This document shows, piece by piece, positions 1,723 through 57,777 of a stretch of 64,000 nucleotides of DNA; position 1 is the stretch's first letter, and each line of letters starts with the position of its first letter. The DNA is taken from positions 1,162 through 65,161 of the forward strand of contig CAYQOX010000024.1 of NCBI GenBank assembly GCA_964419335.1. The letters run 5' to 3'. The notes under the pieces were generated by a model. That model worked only from the letters and a program-made list of their open reading frames with translations. It was not told where the DNA came from and ran no database searches. Source of the DNA: an uncultured bacterium. Lineage in GTDB: Bacteria > Hinthialibacterota > Hinthialibacteria > Hinthialibacterales > Hinthialibacteraceae. The translations under genes and the position numbers were made by a program.

Positions 1723-1949
1723 GGTTCATCCTGTATTTGAGTCCTTTTTGATACATTGAAAAGAAAACAGAACATGATTCTAAAGTGAGAACCATGGTTA
1801 TTTTCAATTTACATGAATCGTACCAAAACGCCGAAGGGGCCTGTGTGGAGCGGCTTTCGGAGCAAGCGGCCCTTAAGGCCGCGCGGAGACAAGCGAAACA
1901 CATCCCCAAGGCGTTTTCCCAAAAAAAGGACTCACTTTCGTGATGAGCC
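1723..1949 (+). mobile_element. MITE copy 1 (full length, ~227 bp) flanked by 8-bp TSD TTAATATA (1715-1722 / 1950-1957)
   Basis: Starts ggttcatcctgtatttgagtcc, ends ggactcactttcgtgatgagcc; internal conserved GC-rich core gcggcccttaaggccgcgcgg; identical 8-bp direct repeats on both flanks. Confidence 0.85.
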
Positions 1950-3061: not shown

Positions 3062-3292
3062 AAAAAAGTTCATCCAGTATTTGAGTCCTTTTTGATACAT
3101 TGAAAAGAAAACAGAGCATGCTTCTAAAGTGAGAACCATGGTTATTTTCAATTTACATGAATCGAACCAAAACGCCGAAGGGACTTGTGTAGAACGCTTT
3201 TTGTACCAAGCAACCCTTAAGACCGCGCGGAGACAAGCGGAACTCATCCCCGAGTCGTTTATCTCAAAAAAATACACCCTTGTCGAATAATC
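3062..3292 (+). mobile_element. MITE copy 2 (full length, divergent termini) with 10-bp TSD AAAAAAAATG (3052-3061 / 3293-3302)
   Basis: Same conserved core as other copies; direct repeat AAAAAAAATG on both flanks. Confidence 0.75.
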
Positions 3293-3375
3293 AAAAAAAA
3301 TGGCATGGAACCTCGGCTTCCCTTTATATATGGACTACAATGATGAAATTACATCTTCTCATGGGAGACTAGGAA

Positions 3376-4699: not shown

Positions 4700-6246
4700 A
4701 TGAATACCAGATTCGATGATTTACAAAACTTTTTCCTTCAAGGGCTTCCCAGCAAGATCTATGCTCTTGAATCTATCCAACGTGAACTCTCTCAACCGGG
4801 CACCCAAACCTATGCCTCCATCAGACGCATTGCCCGTGCACTTCGCATCTCGTGCGAGGAATATGGCTTCCCTGACATCTGCAAGAAAGCGCAAGAAGTC
4901 GAAGAAGCCCAAGATCAGCATATGGCCTCTACATTGAATGAACTTTTACAAGTTCTCAACACCTTATCGATTGCTGATGAAAAACAAAAGTTTAAAATTC
5001 TCATCATTGAAGATGCGCCCGATACCGCCCAATTAATCGCTCTCACGCTAAAAGCCCCCTACCGGGAAATCTTCATCGCCGAGACCTGCGAACTTGCCAG
5101 AGAAATCTTGGATGATCACGATGTCTCCTTAATTCTCCTCGATTTGTTCTTACCCGATACCGATGGACGGAACTTGCTCATCGAACTCCGCGAACGCCCT
5201 CGAACCGCCAACGTTCCCATCTTCGTGGTTTCTGCACAAATTGGTACTCAGGCTGAAAGCGAATGCTACGCCTTAGGAGCGGATGAGTTCATTCGCAAAC
5301 CCTTTGATCTAAAAAACCTCGCCAACGCGGTCTCTTCCAAACTTCAACGAGCCGCCGATATCAAACAAAAACCCCAAATGGATAAATTAACCGGCCTCCC
5401 GAGTCGAGCTGGCTTCAAACGTAAATACAATGAAGCCTTGGGGAAGGCTATTCGTACTTCCAACTATTCAGCGTAGGCTTGATCAACTTAGATCGCCACG
5501 AATCTTTCAAAAAGAAATATGGCGATTCCTTTGGCCAGCAATCCATCCTCCTGACCTCCCAAACCTTACAAGAACACCTCGACGAGTCCTGCACTCTCGC
5601 GAGATGGGATGGCGCCGCCTTTGCCGCTCTCTTTCCCGATACCATGCCCGCTCAAGCCCAACAAAGGTTAGTCCAAGCACTCACCTCTCTCCGCCATAAA
5701 CCCATCCAGGTTCCCCAAGGCGACCCGGTCCCCATCACCTTTTCCGCCGGCGTTGTCTTCGTCTCCCAAGGACAATCGATCAAAGATGTCATGGAACAAG
5801 CGGATACCTATTTATTCCATGCAAAAGCCCATGGACGTAACCGCGTCTTCTCCTCTCAAGATGATGTAAAAGCCATCCCTAAAGAAATTCTTTTGCTGGA
5901 AGATGACGAATCAACCGCCATGTTAATTGAACACCGCCTTATGCGTTCTCATTTCGATGTGATGACTTTTTCTGATGGCCGCAGCGCTTACGAGGCGATT
6001 TGCAATGAAAGCGTTTCCTTGGCGATCTTGGATGCCAATGTTCCGGTGATGAGTGGCTTCGAATTGCTTTCCCGCATCCGCAACGTTCCTGCCTATATGG
6101 ATTTACCCATCATCATGCTCACCAGCATGGGCAGTGAAAAAGATATTCAGCGTGGCTTCGATCTTGGCGCCAATGACTACATTCTCAAACCTTTTTCTCC
6201 CACAGAATTAATGGCACGCGTACATCGCTTACTCAAAAATACGTAG
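4700..6246 (+). pseudogene. REC-GGDEF(degenerate)-REC response regulator, frameshifted at ~5455-5476
   Basis: ORF 4700..5476 has a REC domain (KILIIEDAPD...LLDLFLPDTDG) then a GGDEF start (DKLTGLPSRAGFKRKY). The GGDEF continues in the next frame (FSVGLINLDRHESFKKKYGD...ADTYLFHAKAHGRNRV), followed by a second REC (LLLEDDES...DANVPVMSGFELL...DYILKPF). The GGEEF position reads WDGAAF (5605-5622). Confidence 0.55.
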
Positions 6247-7182: not shown

Positions 7183-7331
7183 AATGCTTTTATATTTTGA
7201 CAAGCATAAGGCATCTATGGTAAAAAAGAAGAGAAAATCTACCCTTGAGAGAATTCAACGCCGTAGGCAACCTGTCCTGATCTCTTTTTTAAGGTTGGAT
7301 TTTCTTTCGTGGATTAAATTTGGTTCATCCT

Positions 7332-7519
7332 GTATTTGAGTACTTTTTAATGCCTTGAAAAGAAAACATGACATGATTCGATCGCGAGGCCTCTGTTTTT
7401 CAATCCTAGTGAATCGAACCAAAACACCGAAGGGGCTTGTGTGGAGCGGCTTTTGGAGCAAGCGGAACCCATCCCCAAGGCGTTTTCTCCCAAAAAAGTA
7501 CTCACTTTCGTGATGATCC
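7332..7519 (+). mobile_element. MITE copy 3 (internal ~40-bp deletion of the GC-rich core)
   Basis: Shares both termini and the 5' half with other copies; lacks the gcccttaaggccgcgcggagacaagc segment; flanks TTAAATTT / TTATATTT (1 mismatch). Confidence 0.75.
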
Positions 7520-10848: not shown

Positions 10849-10859
10849 CCATCAATTTT

Positions 10860-11084
10860 GCTCATGTAATTTGTCTCTTTTTTGACACATCGAAAAGAAA
10901 GCATGACATAATTCTATAGCAAGACCTATGACTTTTTTAGAACTCAATGAATAGAACCAAAACGCCGAAGGGGCTTGTGTGAAGCGGCTTTCGTAGCAAG
11001 CGGCCCTTAAGGCCGCGCGGAGACAAGCGGAACTCATCCCCGAGGCGTTATCTCCAAAAAAAGTATTCACTTTCGTAGTAAGCC
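10860..11084 (+). mobile_element. MITE copy 4 (full length, 5' terminus divergent)
   Basis: Conserved core gcggcccttaaggccgcgcggagacaagcgg; flanks TCAATTTT / ACTAATTTT; starts immediately after the stop codon of 10195..10848. Confidence 0.75.
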
Positions 11085-14554: not shown

Positions 14555-14650
14555 GGTTCATCCTGTATTTGAGTTCTTTTTGATACATTGAAAAGCAAAC
14601 ATGACATGATTCTAAGCGAGACCTTTGACTTTTTTCAGTGCATAAATAAA
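14555..14650 (+). mobile_element. MITE copy 5, 5' fragment only (~95 bp), abutting start codon of response regulator at 14548
   Basis: ggttcatcctgtatttgagttctttttgatacattgaaaagcaaacatgacatgattctaagcgagacc... then unrelated sequence; conserved core and 3' terminus absent. Confidence 0.7.
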
Positions 14651-17319: not shown

Positions 17320-17328
17320 TGGTATAAT
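17320..17328 (+). promoter_or_regulatory. extended -10 promoter element TGgTATAAT
   Basis: tgtggtataatat located 15 nt upstream of MITE copy 6 and ~265 nt upstream of the sigma-54 activator gene. Confidence 0.35.
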
Positions 17329-17342
17329 ATCTTACGATACCT

Positions 17343-17571
17343 GGTTCATCCTGTTTTTGAGTACTTTTTGATACATTGAAAAGGAAACATGACATGATGC
17401 CATAGCGAGACCTATGACTTTTTTTCAATCCTAATGAATCGAATCAAAACGCCGAAGGAGATTGTGTGAAGCGGCTTTCGGAGCAAGCGGCCCTTAAGGC
17501 CGCGCGAAGACAAGCGGAACACATCCCCCAGGCGTGTGCTCCCAAAAAAGGACTCACTTTCGTGATGATCT
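17343..17571 (+). mobile_element. MITE copy 6 (full length) in the 5' leader of the sigma-54 activator gene
   Basis: Both termini and conserved core present; lies between a TGnTATAAT element and ATG 17593. Confidence 0.8.
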
Positions 17572-17592: not shown

Positions 17593-18978
17593 ATGAACAT
17601 TACTCTCATGAATCTCCATCTTCAAAATAATCACCATACAGACTTTGATATCATTCTCGACTCCATCGCCGATGGCGTGTTTACCGTCGATCACGAATGG
17701 AAAATCACCAGCTTTAACCGCGCAGCCGAAGAAATTCTTGGTATTCCCCGGGATGAGGCCATCGGTCGCCCCTGCTGCGAAGTCTTTCGCTCCAGCATCT
17801 GCGAAAGCCAATGCGCCCTAAGTGAAACCATGCGCTCCGGCCAATCCATTGTGAATAAAACCATCTTTGTCGTGAACACCAAAGGCGAAAAAATCCCCAT
17901 CAGCATTTCTACCGCCATCCTCAAAGATGAAGAAGGTAACATCATTGGCGGCGTAGAAACCTTCCGGGATGTCAGCCAAGTAGAAGAATTAAAAAAAGAA
18001 CTCACCAAACAATACTCCTTCATGGATATTCTCGGCCGCAGCCCCTCCATGCAAAACATCTTCGAAATTCTCCCCCATATCTCCCAAAGCAACGTCGCCG
18101 TTCTCCTCAGCGGCGAAAGCGGCACCGGCAAAGAACTCTTCGCCCGCGCCATCCATAATATCTCCCCCCGCGCCAAATATCCTTTCGTCGCGGTTAACTG
18201 TGCCGCCTTGCCCGATTCTTTACTGGAATCGGAACTGTTTGGCTACAAAGCCGGCGCCTTTACCGACGCAAAACACAATAAAGCCGGACGCTTTTCTCTC
18301 GCCCACCGCGGGTCTATTTTCCTCGATGAAATTGGCGATATCTCCCCCGCCATGCAGACGCGCCTTCTCCGCGTTCTCCAAGATCAAACCTTCGAACCGC
18401 TGGGCTCCACCGACTCAGTCCAAGTGGACGTCCGCATCATCACCGCTTCCAACAAGGACCTTTCCCAACTTGTTCAACAAGGGGTCTTTCGTGATGATTT
18501 ATACTACCGTATTAATGTCATCAAAATCGATATTCCCCCCTTGCGCGAACGCAAAGAAGATATCCCTCAATTGATCCAACATTTCGTCTCCAAATACAGC
18601 CGTTTAGAATCCAAAGAAATCTCCGGCGTCTCCGACTCCGTCATGGCCACACTGATGGATTACGAATTCCCTGGCAATGTCCGTGAATTGGAAAATATTA
18701 TCGCCCATTCCGTCGTTTTATGCAGCACCGGCACCCTCGAAATCCAACACCTCCCCTCCAACATTCTCCCCCAATCCCTCACTCCCTCCACTCCCTCCAC
18801 AAAACCCATGTCACTTCGCGATATGGAATCTTTCCATATCATGAATTCCATTCGTCAACATCACGGCAATCGCACCGCCGCTGCCAAAGCCCTGGGTATC
18901 CACCCCAGTACGTTGTTCCGCAAAATTAAAGAACTAAACCTCGATCTCCCTGATATGGACGGCCGCCATCGCAAATAA
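17593..18978 (+). CDS. PAS-domain sigma-54-dependent transcriptional activator (enhancer-binding protein, no REC domain)
   Basis: N-terminal PAS; AAA+ sigma-54 interaction domain (GESGTGKELFARAIH, ESELFGY, GAFTDA variant of GAFTGA, FLDEIGD); C-terminal HTH (AAAKALGIHPSTLFRKIKEL). Confidence 0.85.
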   Translation: MNITLMNLHLQNNHHTDFDIILDSIADGVFTVDHEWKITSFNRAAEEILGIPRDEAIGRPCCEVFRSSICESQCALSETMRSGQSIVNKTIFVVNTKGEKIPISISTAILKDEEGNIIGGVETFRDVSQVEELKKELTKQYSFMDILGRSPSMQNIFEILPHISQSNVAVLLSGESGTGKELFARAIHNISPRAKYPFVAVNCAALPDSLLESELFGYKAGAFTDAKHNKAGRFSLAHRGSIFLDEIGDISPAMQTRLLRVLQDQTFEPLGSTDSVQVDVRIITASNKDLSQLVQQGVFRDDLYYRINVIKIDIPPLRERKEDIPQLIQHFVSKYSRLESKEISGVSDSVMATLMDYEFPGNVRELENIIAHSVVLCSTGTLEIQHLPSNILPQSLTPSTPSTKPMSLRDMESFHIMNSIRQHHGNRTAAAKALGIHPSTLFRKIKELNLDLPDMDGRHRK

Positions 18979-28112: not shown

Positions 28113-28340
28113 GGTTCATCCTGGATTTGAGTACTTTTTGATCCATTGAAAAGAAAACAGAACATGATTCTAAAGTGAAAACCATGGTTATTTTCAATGT
28201 ACATGAATCGAACCACAACGCCGAAGGGGCTTGTGTGGAGCGGCTTTCGGAGCAAGCGGCCCTTAAGGCCGCGCGGAGACAAGCGAAACACATCCCCAAG
28301 GCGTTTTCCCCAAAAAAAGTACTCACTTTCGTGATGAGCC
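28113..28340 (+). mobile_element. MITE copy 7 (full length) flanked by 8-bp TSD TTTTTTAT (28105-28112 / 28341-28348)
   Basis: Near-identical to copy 1; perfect direct repeat on both flanks. Confidence 0.85.
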
Positions 28341-30089: not shown

Positions 30090-30127
30090 TTTTCTTGTTC
30101 CTTCGAAGTATTAGATTCTCTTTGTGG

Positions 30128-30167
30128 GGTCATCCTGTATTTGAGTCCTTTTTGATACATTGAAAAC
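30128..30167 (+). mobile_element. MITE copy 8, ~40-bp 5' terminal stub upstream of the start codon (30089) of the minus-strand GH gene
   Basis: ggtcatcctgtatttgagtcctttttgatacattgaaaac then unrelated sequence. Confidence 0.6.
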
Positions 30168-30336
30168 AATACCTTCATATGACTTAGACAATATCCAAAC
30201 ATTAAGATATCTTATAATAATAGTGTATTTTTTCATGAAGGGGGACAGGTCACTTTTTAACCTCTTCTCCACCTAGCCAAACAAAATCAACTCGGGATAT
30301 ACTATCCGAGAAATTCATACGCGAAATTTTCATGGA

Positions 30337-50231: not shown

Positions 50232-51644
50232 CTATTTGAAATTTGTGATCGTGTCGGTAATTTGTTCCATGACCGAGCGTAATTTTTGTTCGGCTTCCAT
50301 TTCTTTCTCAATTTTGTTGTAAGCAAAGAGAACCGTGGTGTGATCTTTGTTCCCGAAAAACGCGCCAATTTCTGGGAAAGAATGCTGGGTTAATTTCCGG
50401 CTGAGGTACATGGCGATTTGCCTAGGACGCGCGATCGAACGCGAACGGTTCTTCCCGATGATATCTGATGGTTTGATGCTGAAATATTCTGCGACTTTTC
50501 GTTGGATTTTCTCAATCGTGACTTCCTTGGTGGGACGGTCGAAGATCTCCCCGAGCACCTTACCCACTGTTTCAACGTTGAGATTCTCATTCGAAAACTT
50601 CGCGTAGGCGGTAATCTTGGCGAGGGCGCCTTCCAACTCACGAATGGAAAAACGCACTTTACTGGCGAGAAATTCCAAAATGTCATCGGGGATGATCATA
50701 TCCTCGGTTTCACATTTTTTCCGTAAAATCGCCATACGCATCTCAAAATCGGGAGGGGTAATATCTACGATCAATCCCCACTCGAAGCGTGAGCGGAGGC
50801 GGTCTTCGATGGTGGGGATATCCTTAGGCGGACGATCGCTGGAAATCACGATTTGTTTGCGGCGGTTATGGAGCGCGTTAAACGTATGGAAGAATTCTTC
50901 CTGGGTAGATTCTTTCCCCGCTAGAAATTGAATATCGTCGATCAGCAAGACATCCACATTACGGAAGGTGGATTGAAACGAGAGGCGGGCGTTGCGCTTA
51001 ATCGCATCGATAAAGACGTTGACGAATTGTTCCGCCGAGAGATAGACCACCCGCTTGGCGGGGTGTAAATACTGCACTTTATTCCCGATCGCCTGCATTA
51101 AGTGGGTTTTTCCCAGTCCGACACCGCCGTAGACAAACAGAGGGTTGTAGGATTGGGCTGGAGCAGCGGCCACCGCTTGAGCGGCCGCATTCGCCATTTT
51201 GTTACATGTTCCAACCACGAAATTGTCAAAAGTATAACTGGCGTTTAATGGTTCAAACTCAAGCAATCCTTCTGTGCTTGTAATGGCTGGGCTGTAGGAA
51301 GGAGCATAAGAACTTGGGGCTTGTGCCTTCACCTCTTCCCCCATCGAGCCGCTGAGTCGAATTTCTACATCCACAATACAATCCAATAATTCAGAAAATA
51401 TATCCGTTAGCAGGGCATGGTAATTCTTTTCGATGTATTCCCTGCGGTACCCGCTGGGGATACCTAGTATGACGTTACCATCTATGTTTTCAAGGACTTG
51501 TGCATCTTCAAACCAATCTTCTAATTCATCTTCCGTGAGTTTATGACGCAGCGCTTCTTGCGCCTTTTCCCAAAGAGAGCGTGTGTTATCCGTGTTCATT
51601 ACATTGGGCATGACTACCATTTTTTCCATAATCCTCCTTCCCAT
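50232..51644 (-). CDS. dnaA: chromosomal replication initiator protein DnaA
   Basis: AAA+ box LFVYGGVGLGKTHLMQAIGN; domain IV IARPRQIAMYLSRKLTQHSFPEIGAFFG.KDHTTVLFAYNKI; true start probably 51628 or 51620 (GGAGGA RBS at 51633-51638). Confidence 0.9.
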   Translation of the reverse strand: MGRRIMEKMVVMPNVMNTDNTRSLWEKAQEALRHKLTEDELEDWFEDAQVLENIDGNVILGIPSGYRREYIEKNYHALLTDIFSELLDCIVDVEIRLSGSMGEEVKAQAPSSYAPSYSPAITSTEGLLEFEPLNASYTFDNFVVGTCNKMANAAAQAVAAAPAQSYNPLFVYGGVGLGKTHLMQAIGNKVQYLHPAKRVVYLSAEQFVNVFIDAIKRNARLSFQSTFRNVDVLLIDDIQFLAGKESTQEEFFHTFNALHNRRKQIVISSDRPPKDIPTIEDRLRSRFEWGLIVDITPPDFEMRMAILRKKCETEDMIIPDDILEFLASKVRFSIRELEGALAKITAYAKFSNENLNVETVGKVLGEIFDRPTKEVTIEKIQRKVAEYFSIKPSDIIGKNRSRSIARPRQIAMYLSRKLTQHSFPEIGAFFGNKDHTTVLFAYNKIEKEMEAEQKLRSVMEQITDTITNFK

Positions 51645-51649
51645 GCTTA

Positions 51650-52610
51650 CAAACTGTAAAACAGTTCACTAGATGGGAGCCAAAAGTTCAATTCATACAA
51701 TGACTTATGCTCAAAATAGAGCAAAAAAAACCATCCCTCCCTCACTCGGTGGTCCTAAGTGAGCCTTGATCCAATCGCATTGTGACCTCTCAGTTAATTC
51801 AGATTGCGGAAATTATAGAGTTTCTCGATCTTTCCTTTTTATTTCTCAAGGTTTTGTTGTTCGTAAATGGATGTCGTAAAGGAGGGCCTTTTTCTATCCC
51901 TTATTCACAAGTTATCCCCTTTATCCACAGGACTATCCACAGGTTATTAACAAAGCCTTGATTTTTATAATCTTATGAATGTGATTCGTTGTTGATATTT
52001 TTAGCATTCTCTTCGTATTCACGCAATGCCTTTTTCACTTTTTCCGATTAAAACAAGGAAATTAAAAAGGCTGTAAATGGTTTAATGAAAGTCTGTTAGC
52101 CCATCAAAAAAAAATTGAAATTTTTTCAGCCGCTTTTGTTTGTTTTTTGTCTTATTCTTTATAAAAAATTGAATTTATTGACTTTAATAGTTTGGAGAAA
52201 TAGAGAACCTTGAATTTACTTGAAAAAGTTAAGAAAAACCAATTAGATAGAATTAATAGGCCTCGGTTAGATTTCTTGCCAAGACTTCTTCTATCTTCTT
52301 AAAAAACAGTCCATTACAAAAGCATTTTGCAAGAAGATTTTACGAATATCCCCAGAAAGGGGCCTCTTTTTTTGTACCTAAGTTCAATAATTCTTGGTCT
52401 ATAACGAGGAAATGCTTGTATTGACCGATGCGATGATGAAACCTCTTTTCGTTCCTGATCGGCTTTATTTATCCACAGATTTGAGATTTTCTCGTTCAAA
52501 AACGCTGGATTTCGGTCAATCCATCGAACCGGGAGGTGCTTTTTCTCCAAATTCCCTTAAACGTTAGTTGGTTAGGAGCCAAAATACAGAGTAAGACATT
52601 TTAGCATTGG
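51650..52610. other. candidate chromosomal replication origin (oriC): DnaA boxes plus AT-rich unwinding region
   Basis: TTATTCACA 51901-51909, TTATCCACA 51921-51929, CTATCCACA 51933-51941, TTATCCACA 52469-52477; long A/T tract 52100-52200; immediately upstream of dnaA. Confidence 0.65.
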
Positions 52611-52619
52611 AGGTAGAAA

Positions 52620-57550: not shown

Positions 57551-57777
57551 GGATCCTCACGAAAGTGAGCCCTTTTTTTGGAGAACGCCTTGGGGTTGTG
57601 TTCCGCTTGTCTCCGCGCGGCCTTAAGGGCCGCTTGCTACGAAAGCCGCTCCACACAAGCCCCTTCGACGTTTTGGTTCTATTGATTCGGATCGAAAAAA
57701 GGCATGACTTTCATTTATAGAATCATGTCATGTTTCCTTTTCGAGGTCTCAACAAATACTCAACGACAGGAAGAACC
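57551..57777 (-). mobile_element. MITE copy 9 (full length, inverted orientation) flanked by 9-bp TSD TTTTTTTAT (57542-57550 / 57778-57786)
   Basis: Reverse complement of the family consensus including gcggcccttaaggccgcgcgg core; perfect 9-bp direct repeat on both flanks; between convergent genes. Confidence 0.85.

Follow-up and report, generated by a model that had tools for sequence, protein, structure and literature searches.

Correia/NEMIS of Neisseria, ERIC, RUP, BOX and SPRITE belong to the small repeats that have an inverted repeat at either end, and in transcripts they form long hairpins that can alter the fate of the mRNAs of neighbouring genes (RNase III sites, terminators, promoters). 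In most cases it is their terminal repeats that make up the functional hairpin, or else the hairpin is a simple terminator. Imperfect palindromes of a different kind are found in integron attC sites, in IS200/IS605 hairpins and in REP/RAYT elements, where pairing is maintained over sequence and where the palindromes are strand-specific and polar with respect to replication; these systems depend on tyrosine or HUH enzymes and have neither terminal inverted repeats nor target duplications. The MITE-like element bcr1 of the Bacillus cereus group, about 155 bp long, adopts a cruciform-like fold with two independent internal stem-loops, shows compensatory changes, and loses stability in single copies over time (PMC3184786). 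For the insertion sequences (IS) of the ISL3 family the published descriptions used here give ends of the form GGCTCTTCG... or GGGTCTTCGGA and 8-bp, often AT-rich target duplications (PMC6305408, PMC11448079, PMC9782665). One ISL3 element mobilises a MITE in Microcystis (PMC11448079). An orientation against the replication fork has been reported for few IS families, among them ISL3, whose transposase binds to the beta clamp (PMC3971601).

How does the locus analysed here compare with these systems? The window, by which we mean the whole 64-kb stretch of DNA that was analysed, contains a repeated element that resembles each of them in part. With ISL3 elements and their MITEs (PMC11448079) it has in common the 8-bp AT-rich duplication and a short, non-coding, intergenic nature; its ends resemble the type GGCTC(A/T)TC, and its orientation is biased relative to the replication fork in the manner reported for ISL3 (PMC3971601). 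It differs in that its terminal repeats agree with the available published ends only over the first 9–11 nt or so, and in that it contains a conserved subterminal hairpin, of which there is none in the ISL3 descriptions that were compared. The likeness to bcr1 is one of architecture, no similarity in sequence having been noted; it includes the MITE-like organization with target duplications, the internal stem-loops, the compensatory changes and the loss of stability in single copies, whereas bcr1 has a 5-bp duplication, a Firmicutes host and known transcription. Unlike Correia/NEMIS and the other small repeats, the element carries a separate internal palindrome that is conserved above the terminal repeats, and its terminator-like tracts are not conserved. 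The resemblance to attC, IS200/IS605 and REP/RAYT lies in the preference of pairing over sequence, which here applies to the outer stems, in the proposed strand specificity and in the polarity relative to replication; the difference is that terminal repeats and duplications are present and that the central sequence itself is conserved. A hairpin-forming MITE is a kind of element that is already familiar, and the less ordinary features are the internal palindrome conserved above the terminal repeats and the replication-polar orientation of an element without a gene.

Seven full copies and two left-end fragments were identified in the 64-kb window by a search for repeats, by patterns specific to the ends and by a profile run with nhmmer. 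Copy c1 (positions 1723–1949, plus strand) is 227 bp long and non-coding and is flanked by the target duplication TTAATATA at 1715–1722 and 1950–1957. From left to right the element consists of a left terminal inverted repeat, a variable AT-rich domain, a 93-nt palindrome, a 2-nt spacer and a right terminal repeat. In c1 these are the left repeat GGTTCATCCTGTATTTGAGTCCTTTTTG (1723–1750), which has an internal dyad symmetry GGTTCA..TGAGTCC, the AT-rich left domain (1756–1807), in which a helix of TTGAAAA (1756–1762) and TTTTCAA (1801–1807) surrounds a hairpin at 1773–1796, the GC-rich core (1825–1917), an imperfect palindrome with 64% GC, and the right repeat CAAAAAAAGGACTCACTTTCGTGATGAGCC (1920–1949), all read on the plus strand. 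The terminal repeats, 28–30 nt in length, match each other at 22 of 28 positions when the left one is compared with the reverse complement of the right one, and they pair with each other in the fold of the MITE alignment. The other full copies on the plus strand are the decayed c2 (3067–3293, core about 3169–3261), c3 (7322–7519, core 7421–7486, target duplication TTAAATTT/TTATATTT), c4 with a degenerate left repeat (10859–11084, core 10959–11051), c6 (17343–17571, core 17446–17538) and c7 (28113–28340, core 28215–28307, target duplication TTTTTTAT), and c9 (57551–57777, core about 57584–57674, flanking duplication ATAAAAAAA) is found on the minus strand. Fragments c5 (14555–14645, left end without core) and c8 (30127–30172, left terminal repeat only) are also in plus orientation. 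The 8-bp AT-rich duplications are exact in c1, c7 and c9, are preserved at seven of eight positions in c3 and at six of eight in c4 and c6; c1 and c7, both with perfect duplications, are 96% identical. All nine copies and fragments are intergenic, in two convergent, four tandem (two sense, two antisense) and three divergent spacers. No reading frame is kept across the copies, as in every frame stops occur or starts are missing in some of them, and the element has no match to Pfam or another protein family. By its terminal repeats, its 8-bp target duplications, its small size, its multiple copies and its lack of a conserved ORF the element is a MITE.

Three details of the ends may be added. The insertion point of c1 is the exact stop codon of a minus-strand gene ending at 1950, and this gene still has a stop because a TAA falls within the duplicated 8-mer TTAATATA. 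Each terminal repeat contains an internal dyad GGYTCA-N9-TGAGTCC (1723–1744 and 1928–1949 in c1), which is also kept in a diverged relative (5743–5764 of locus L003, see below). Read on the minus strand, the right repeat and the T7 behind it were scored as terminator-like.

The core is real and foldable. An earlier note on this DNA had claimed a conserved GC-rich structured core between 1790 and 1945, with complementary outer segments, a gggg/cccc pairing and an inner hairpin, and all of this is indeed found at 1825–1917: an outer stem AAAACGCC/GGCGTTTT is followed inwards by GGGG/CCCC, by TGTGT/ACACA, by an irregular middle part and by the inner hairpin GCGGCC-CTTAA-GGCCGC (1866–1882 in c1). 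A 43-nt piece of the core occurs five times with at most three mismatches, as compared to no occurrence in 100 shuffles. Folding, which the note had named as a check, yields −43 kcal/mol for the core with z-scores of −2.1 to −2.9 in the intact copies, and the whole element reaches z-scores of −6.1 (plus strand) and −4.9 (minus strand). The statement that all full copies conserve the core was slightly generous, since five of the seven are essentially intact and c2 and c3 are not. In c2, for which multiple substitutions had been pointed out, 14 are counted in the core, mostly GC to AT, and the fold is gone (z = −0.95). In c3 the inner hairpin is missing as described, together with another 10 nt, the deletion comprising 27 nt (CAAGCGGCCCTTAAGGCCGCGCGGAGA); a direct repeat GAG(A)CAAGCGG borders the deleted segment, which argues for deletion by slippage. 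A GGAG..AAGCGG motif occurs in two to three direct copies within the core, and it could also be a site of protein binding. The position given for the sixth copy is likewise correct: c6 lies between an extended −10 element TGGTATAAT (17320–17328), the only promoter-like sequence seen near the MITE copies, and the ATG at 17593 of a gene for a sigma-54 activator. Judged from this arrangement c6 may well be transcribed as a leader, which by itself says nothing on function.

Within the window no part of the element varies less than the core: 5.5% of the alignment cells of the core are variant, as compared to 13% when the remainder is taken together with the terminal repeats. The left AT-rich domain divides the copies into subfamilies, with about 18 shared sites at which it distinguishes them, and across these subfamilies the core is constant. 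Architecture and junctions are common to all copies, and the subfamilies of the window are for this reason taken to descend from one MITE ancestor. A protein search with spurious ORFs across the MITE retrieved two further sequences, P0122 and P0123, which are probably other contigs of the source MAG and in which FRLSPRGLKGRLLRKPLHTSPF is unchanged; P0122 shares left-domain variants with c9 and P0123 with c1/c7, so that apparent singletons of the left domain are largely lineage variants. In the left domain (1756–1807 and equivalents) a double change from U-A to C-G is observed in c4 and c9, and the covariation signal of this domain is weak, 11 of 500 shuffles reaching it.

Is this constancy a matter of the stems? 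Among the window copies, which vary little, the substitutions contain no compensated pair, and with a structure predicted from the consensus sequence alone the variant cells amount to 5.8% in paired and 6.2% in unpaired columns (p = 0.86). An apparent three- to fivefold sparing of the stems, obtained with the RNAalifold structure, was discarded as circular, the predictor having left variable columns unpaired; it vanished with the structure from the consensus sequence. Moreover, 21 of the 24 variant cells at paired core positions break a plus-sense pair, the commonest change within the genome is G to A on the plus strand, in agreement with the local GC skew, and in c2 the core decays faster than the left half of the same copy. 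Once inserted, individual copies would thus seem to decay neutrally in their core.

The relatives retrieved from other assemblies are two diverged loci: L003 (GCA_019912865.1) was reached via P0124 in a protein search with spurious minus-strand frame-B ORFs of the MITE, and L004 (ERR15087783) via P0128 in an exhaustive HMMER search. Minus-strand frame-A ORFs retrieved nothing in the protein search, and a further HMMER match, P0127, was discarded as an unrelated repetitive protein. No MITE copy and no comparable repeats are present in L001, a syntenic contig of a relative; exact-pattern scans with the left repeat and three core patterns gave no match in genome, metagenome and viral contigs, the core patterns used on genome and metagenome contigs being too strict for a sequence of the L003 type; and blastn against plasmids and phages found no match to the MITE. 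The host is a Candidatus Omnitrophota MAG, and its nearest CysS among 5.8 billion proteins is 72% identical. P0124 (MBZ0255894.1; L003 5785–5922) and P0128 (L004 292–570) have been deposited or predicted as hypothetical proteins; both are mere translations of the MITE core and are annotation artefacts. The L003 element, of about 435 bp, contains at about 6060–6150 in minus-strand view a nested palindromic repeat, tctccccttgggagagggctggggtgaggg ... ccctcatcc...ctcccagagggagaaggg, probably an insertion of a second repeat family. In L004 tRNA-like 3′ halves (GCGGGA...GGGTCGAACCCGCAACC) are located on either side of the degenerate MITE copy at about 1–60 and 500–560, which suggests a tRNA-gene neighbourhood or a site at which another element has integrated.

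L003 and L004 share no more with the window MITE than the core and the right terminal repeat; the left halves are unalignable. Over 95 nt the identity of the core between the window consensus and L003 is 81%, and its central 62 nt match at 57 positions (92%), while the identity of the terminal repeats between the lineages drops to about 70%. The core is therefore better conserved than the terminal repeats between lineages as well as within the window. Of the five central differences two are located in the hairpin loop (CTTAA to AATAA), one is in an internal loop at a base that is also polymorphic among the window copies, and the remaining two constitute one compensatory pair (C-G to G-C). Since strong conservation extends to the unpaired bases within the central 62 nt, folding alone is an insufficient explanation for the conservation, and as no reading frame of the core has a synonymous excess, the constraint is not one of protein coding. 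Outside the centre GGGG/CCCC is replaced by GGTG/CACC in L003 and the outer AAAAC/GUUUU stem by CCAUGC/GUAUGG in the same register, and CGCC/GGCG has decayed. Despite these changes L003 folds into the same architecture, with a z-score of −3.9 in MITE plus sense and −2.2 for the other strand. In L004 the fold is lost.

The note had suggested covariation as a check for an RNA module, and here the answer differs with the level of comparison, the absence of compensated pairs within the genome standing against four to five compensated pairs between the lineages. In four cases a double change brings back a Watson-Crick pair. When 22 differences are placed at random in the whole core, at least four compensated pairs arise with P = 0.002 in a simulation for which the structure was predicted from the window consensus alone. 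For the well-aligned inner core P is 0.012 for at least two compensatory pairs, and 0.0007 if in addition no more broken pairs than observed are allowed. In an alignment of nine sequences the covariation score is 0.102 as compared to 0.049 in shuffles, none of 500 shuffles reaching 0.102 and slid controls remaining at or below 0.042; in stricter counts of pairs and pair types 9–10 of 500 shuffles reach the observed value. It has to be considered that L003 and L004 share the derived states, so that the compensatory evidence comes from one comparison of lineages with about four events, and two of these events fall in the poorly alignable outer stem. Furthermore, template switching at quasi-palindromes can produce changes that look compensatory without selection. 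Taken with these restrictions, the comparison of the sequences is suggestive of a maintenance of core stems by compensatory change between the lineages.

No transposase is encoded in the 64-kb window. The ends of the MITE, GGCTCATCA and GGTTCATCC (GGYTCATC...), match the ISL3 ends given in the published accounts at seven of nine positions; a blastn search of plasmids with the MITE end gave no match. In addition to the ends, the orientation of the copies is informative. The dnaA gene (50232–51644, minus strand) adjoins a 975-bp AT-rich spacer (51645–52619), with which it defines the polarity of the copies and that holds the only two perfect DnaA boxes of the window (51921 and 52469) and two near-perfect ones (51901 and 51933) and around which the GC skew switches sign; this spacer is the probable chromosomal replication origin. 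To the left of it all eight copies are in plus orientation, and to the right the only copy, c9, is in minus orientation, so that nine of nine have the same polarity with respect to fork movement (two-sided p = 0.004, for nine copies and one origin). Ends, 8-bp duplication and polarity are consistent with an ISL3-like parentage and do not prove it; to judge from such sequence features, the transposase that acts on the MITE in trans is most probably an ISL3-family enzyme with its gene elsewhere in the genome. Since the parent IS was not found, we infer both this assignment and the cis role of the core that is discussed below.

What could keep an internal hairpin of a MITE constant? The explanation that we favour, and to which we assign a somewhat better than even chance, is that the core is the right-end internal hairpin of the MITE and serves as a cis-signal in its mobilisation or propagation by an ISL3-like transposase, with selection acting on the element lineage. 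The MITE would be a non-autonomous DDE-type transposon that is moved in trans by an ISL3-family transposase from elsewhere in the genome. Its hairpin would be held constant by selection on the lineage of elements while subfamilies and lineages diverge elsewhere, and in each individual copy the core would decay neutrally after insertion. Constancy of the core across subfamilies and lineages combined with decay in single insertions argues for selection on the element and not on the host locus. The folded strand would then be a cis-acting signal for the element's own mobilisation or propagation, and any effect on neighbouring transcripts would be a by-product. As the consensus and L003 have G·U pairs of the plus-sense type only, the plus sense is favoured as the folded strand. 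Recognition of the signal could take place on single-stranded DNA at the fork, in keeping with the polarity that all copies share relative to replication. A more specific version, according to which the transposase or a conserved host factor reads a folded single-strand signal that couples DDE-type, ISL3-like mobilisation to the fork, would explain at once why the core is more conserved than the terminal repeats, why the wobbles occur on one strand and why the polarity relative to oriC is uniform; we regard this version as speculative and distinctly improbable. To our knowledge no subterminal structured cis-element of such a kind is known for ISL3 or for other cut-and-paste IS families.

Three other explanations each account for part of the data. 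The core might be a neutral palindrome that appears conserved since the copies are young and since each arm is corrected against the other in template switching or gene conversion. The near-identity of c1 and c7 with their perfect target duplications fits this proposal, as do the folding of both strands, the changes within the genome that look neutral and follow the mutational skew, and the faster decay of the c2 core relative to its left half. It does not explain, however, how the central core could remain 92% identical between lineages whose terminal repeats are down to about 70% and whose left halves are unalignable, nor why the core shows no change between the subfamilies, which about 18 shared left-domain sites set apart. 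In particular, arm-to-arm correction cannot account for the conservation of unpaired central positions. We therefore consider a purely neutral origin unlikely, though it is the strongest of the three.

Alternatively, the core could be a relic of the parent IS, derived from the 3′ untranslated region or terminator of the transposase mRNA or from the C-terminal end of the coding region, which would be under constraint in the parent alone and be re-imported into MITEs. Such an origin would be in line with the location of the core directly inside the right terminal repeat, in fixed orientation and in all lineages, with the UUUU that follows the hairpin in plus sense and with the TGATGA stops within the right repeat. 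Against it speak the lack of a synonymous excess in any frame, the stops in every frame in some copies, and the subfamilies of the window, which derive from one MITE ancestor and retained the core in spite of the divergence of their left domains. We rate this origin as quite a remote prospect.

The least probable of the three, with only a slim chance in our estimate, is a host-level role of the kind proposed in the earlier note, where the core was taken for an RNA-level module of stability or attenuation: in transcripts the hairpin would be an attenuator, a terminator or a 3′-end stabiliser for the neighbouring genes and would be kept for this reason. In the window copies the stable hairpin is indeed flanked by A4 and U4 tracts in both directions and resembles a bidirectional terminator, c6 has an extended −10 element on one side and a start codon on the other, and terminator-like MITEs such as SPRITE exist (PMC10969869). 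Moreover, the U-tract is damaged on the very side where read-through into a downstream gene would be needed (TTAT in c4 and TGTG in c6 in plus sense, TTGT in c7 in minus sense), and c3, which belongs to the same pattern, has its hairpin deleted. This pattern was recognised post hoc and is weak, at roughly p = 0.04; such damage would fit a situation in which an intact module disturbs the transcription units around it. Against a host function speak the lack of bias in genomic context or sense among the two convergent, four tandem and three divergent spacers, the variation of stems to the same degree as loops within the genome without any compensated substitution, and the absence of the fold from c2 and c3, two of the seven full copies of the window, and from L004. 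The tracts are not kept either: the U-tract of the window copies is only U4 in plus sense and UUUUGGUU in minus sense, U4 is short for a terminator, and a terminator scan does not mark the core. In L003 and L004 the A4/U4 tracts are replaced by CCAUGC/GUAUGG without a U-run, and the combination of a GC-rich stem with a conserved U-tract that characterises SPRITE-like elements is thus not found. Rfam yielded no match at gathering score and none within the core at E ≤ 10. On these grounds a stability or attenuation module finds little favour as the reason for the conservation. Three further candidates were rejected: a small coding protein or transposase remnant (stops in all frames, no synonymous excess, no Pfam match), an element of the REP/RAYT or IS200/IS605 type (ruled out by the terminal inverted repeats and the 8-bp duplications), and a tRNA-derived element or known RNA family (no tRNA or tmRNA found, no Rfam match).

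As a practical point, ORFs derived from such MITEs have already been deposited as hypothetical proteins, as the example of MBZ0255894.1 illustrates. If selection on the element lineage is the true reading, which we infer from the pattern of constancy and decay, the MITE would provide a compact natural case in which selection acts on the non-coding structure of a mobile element itself and not on its host, with conservation of structure across element lineages, decay after insertion and replication-polar orientation of a non-coding MITE as its signatures. It would also mean that the orientation bias of the ISL3 type is independent of the transposase gene and has its source in the ends of the element or in internal cis-signals.
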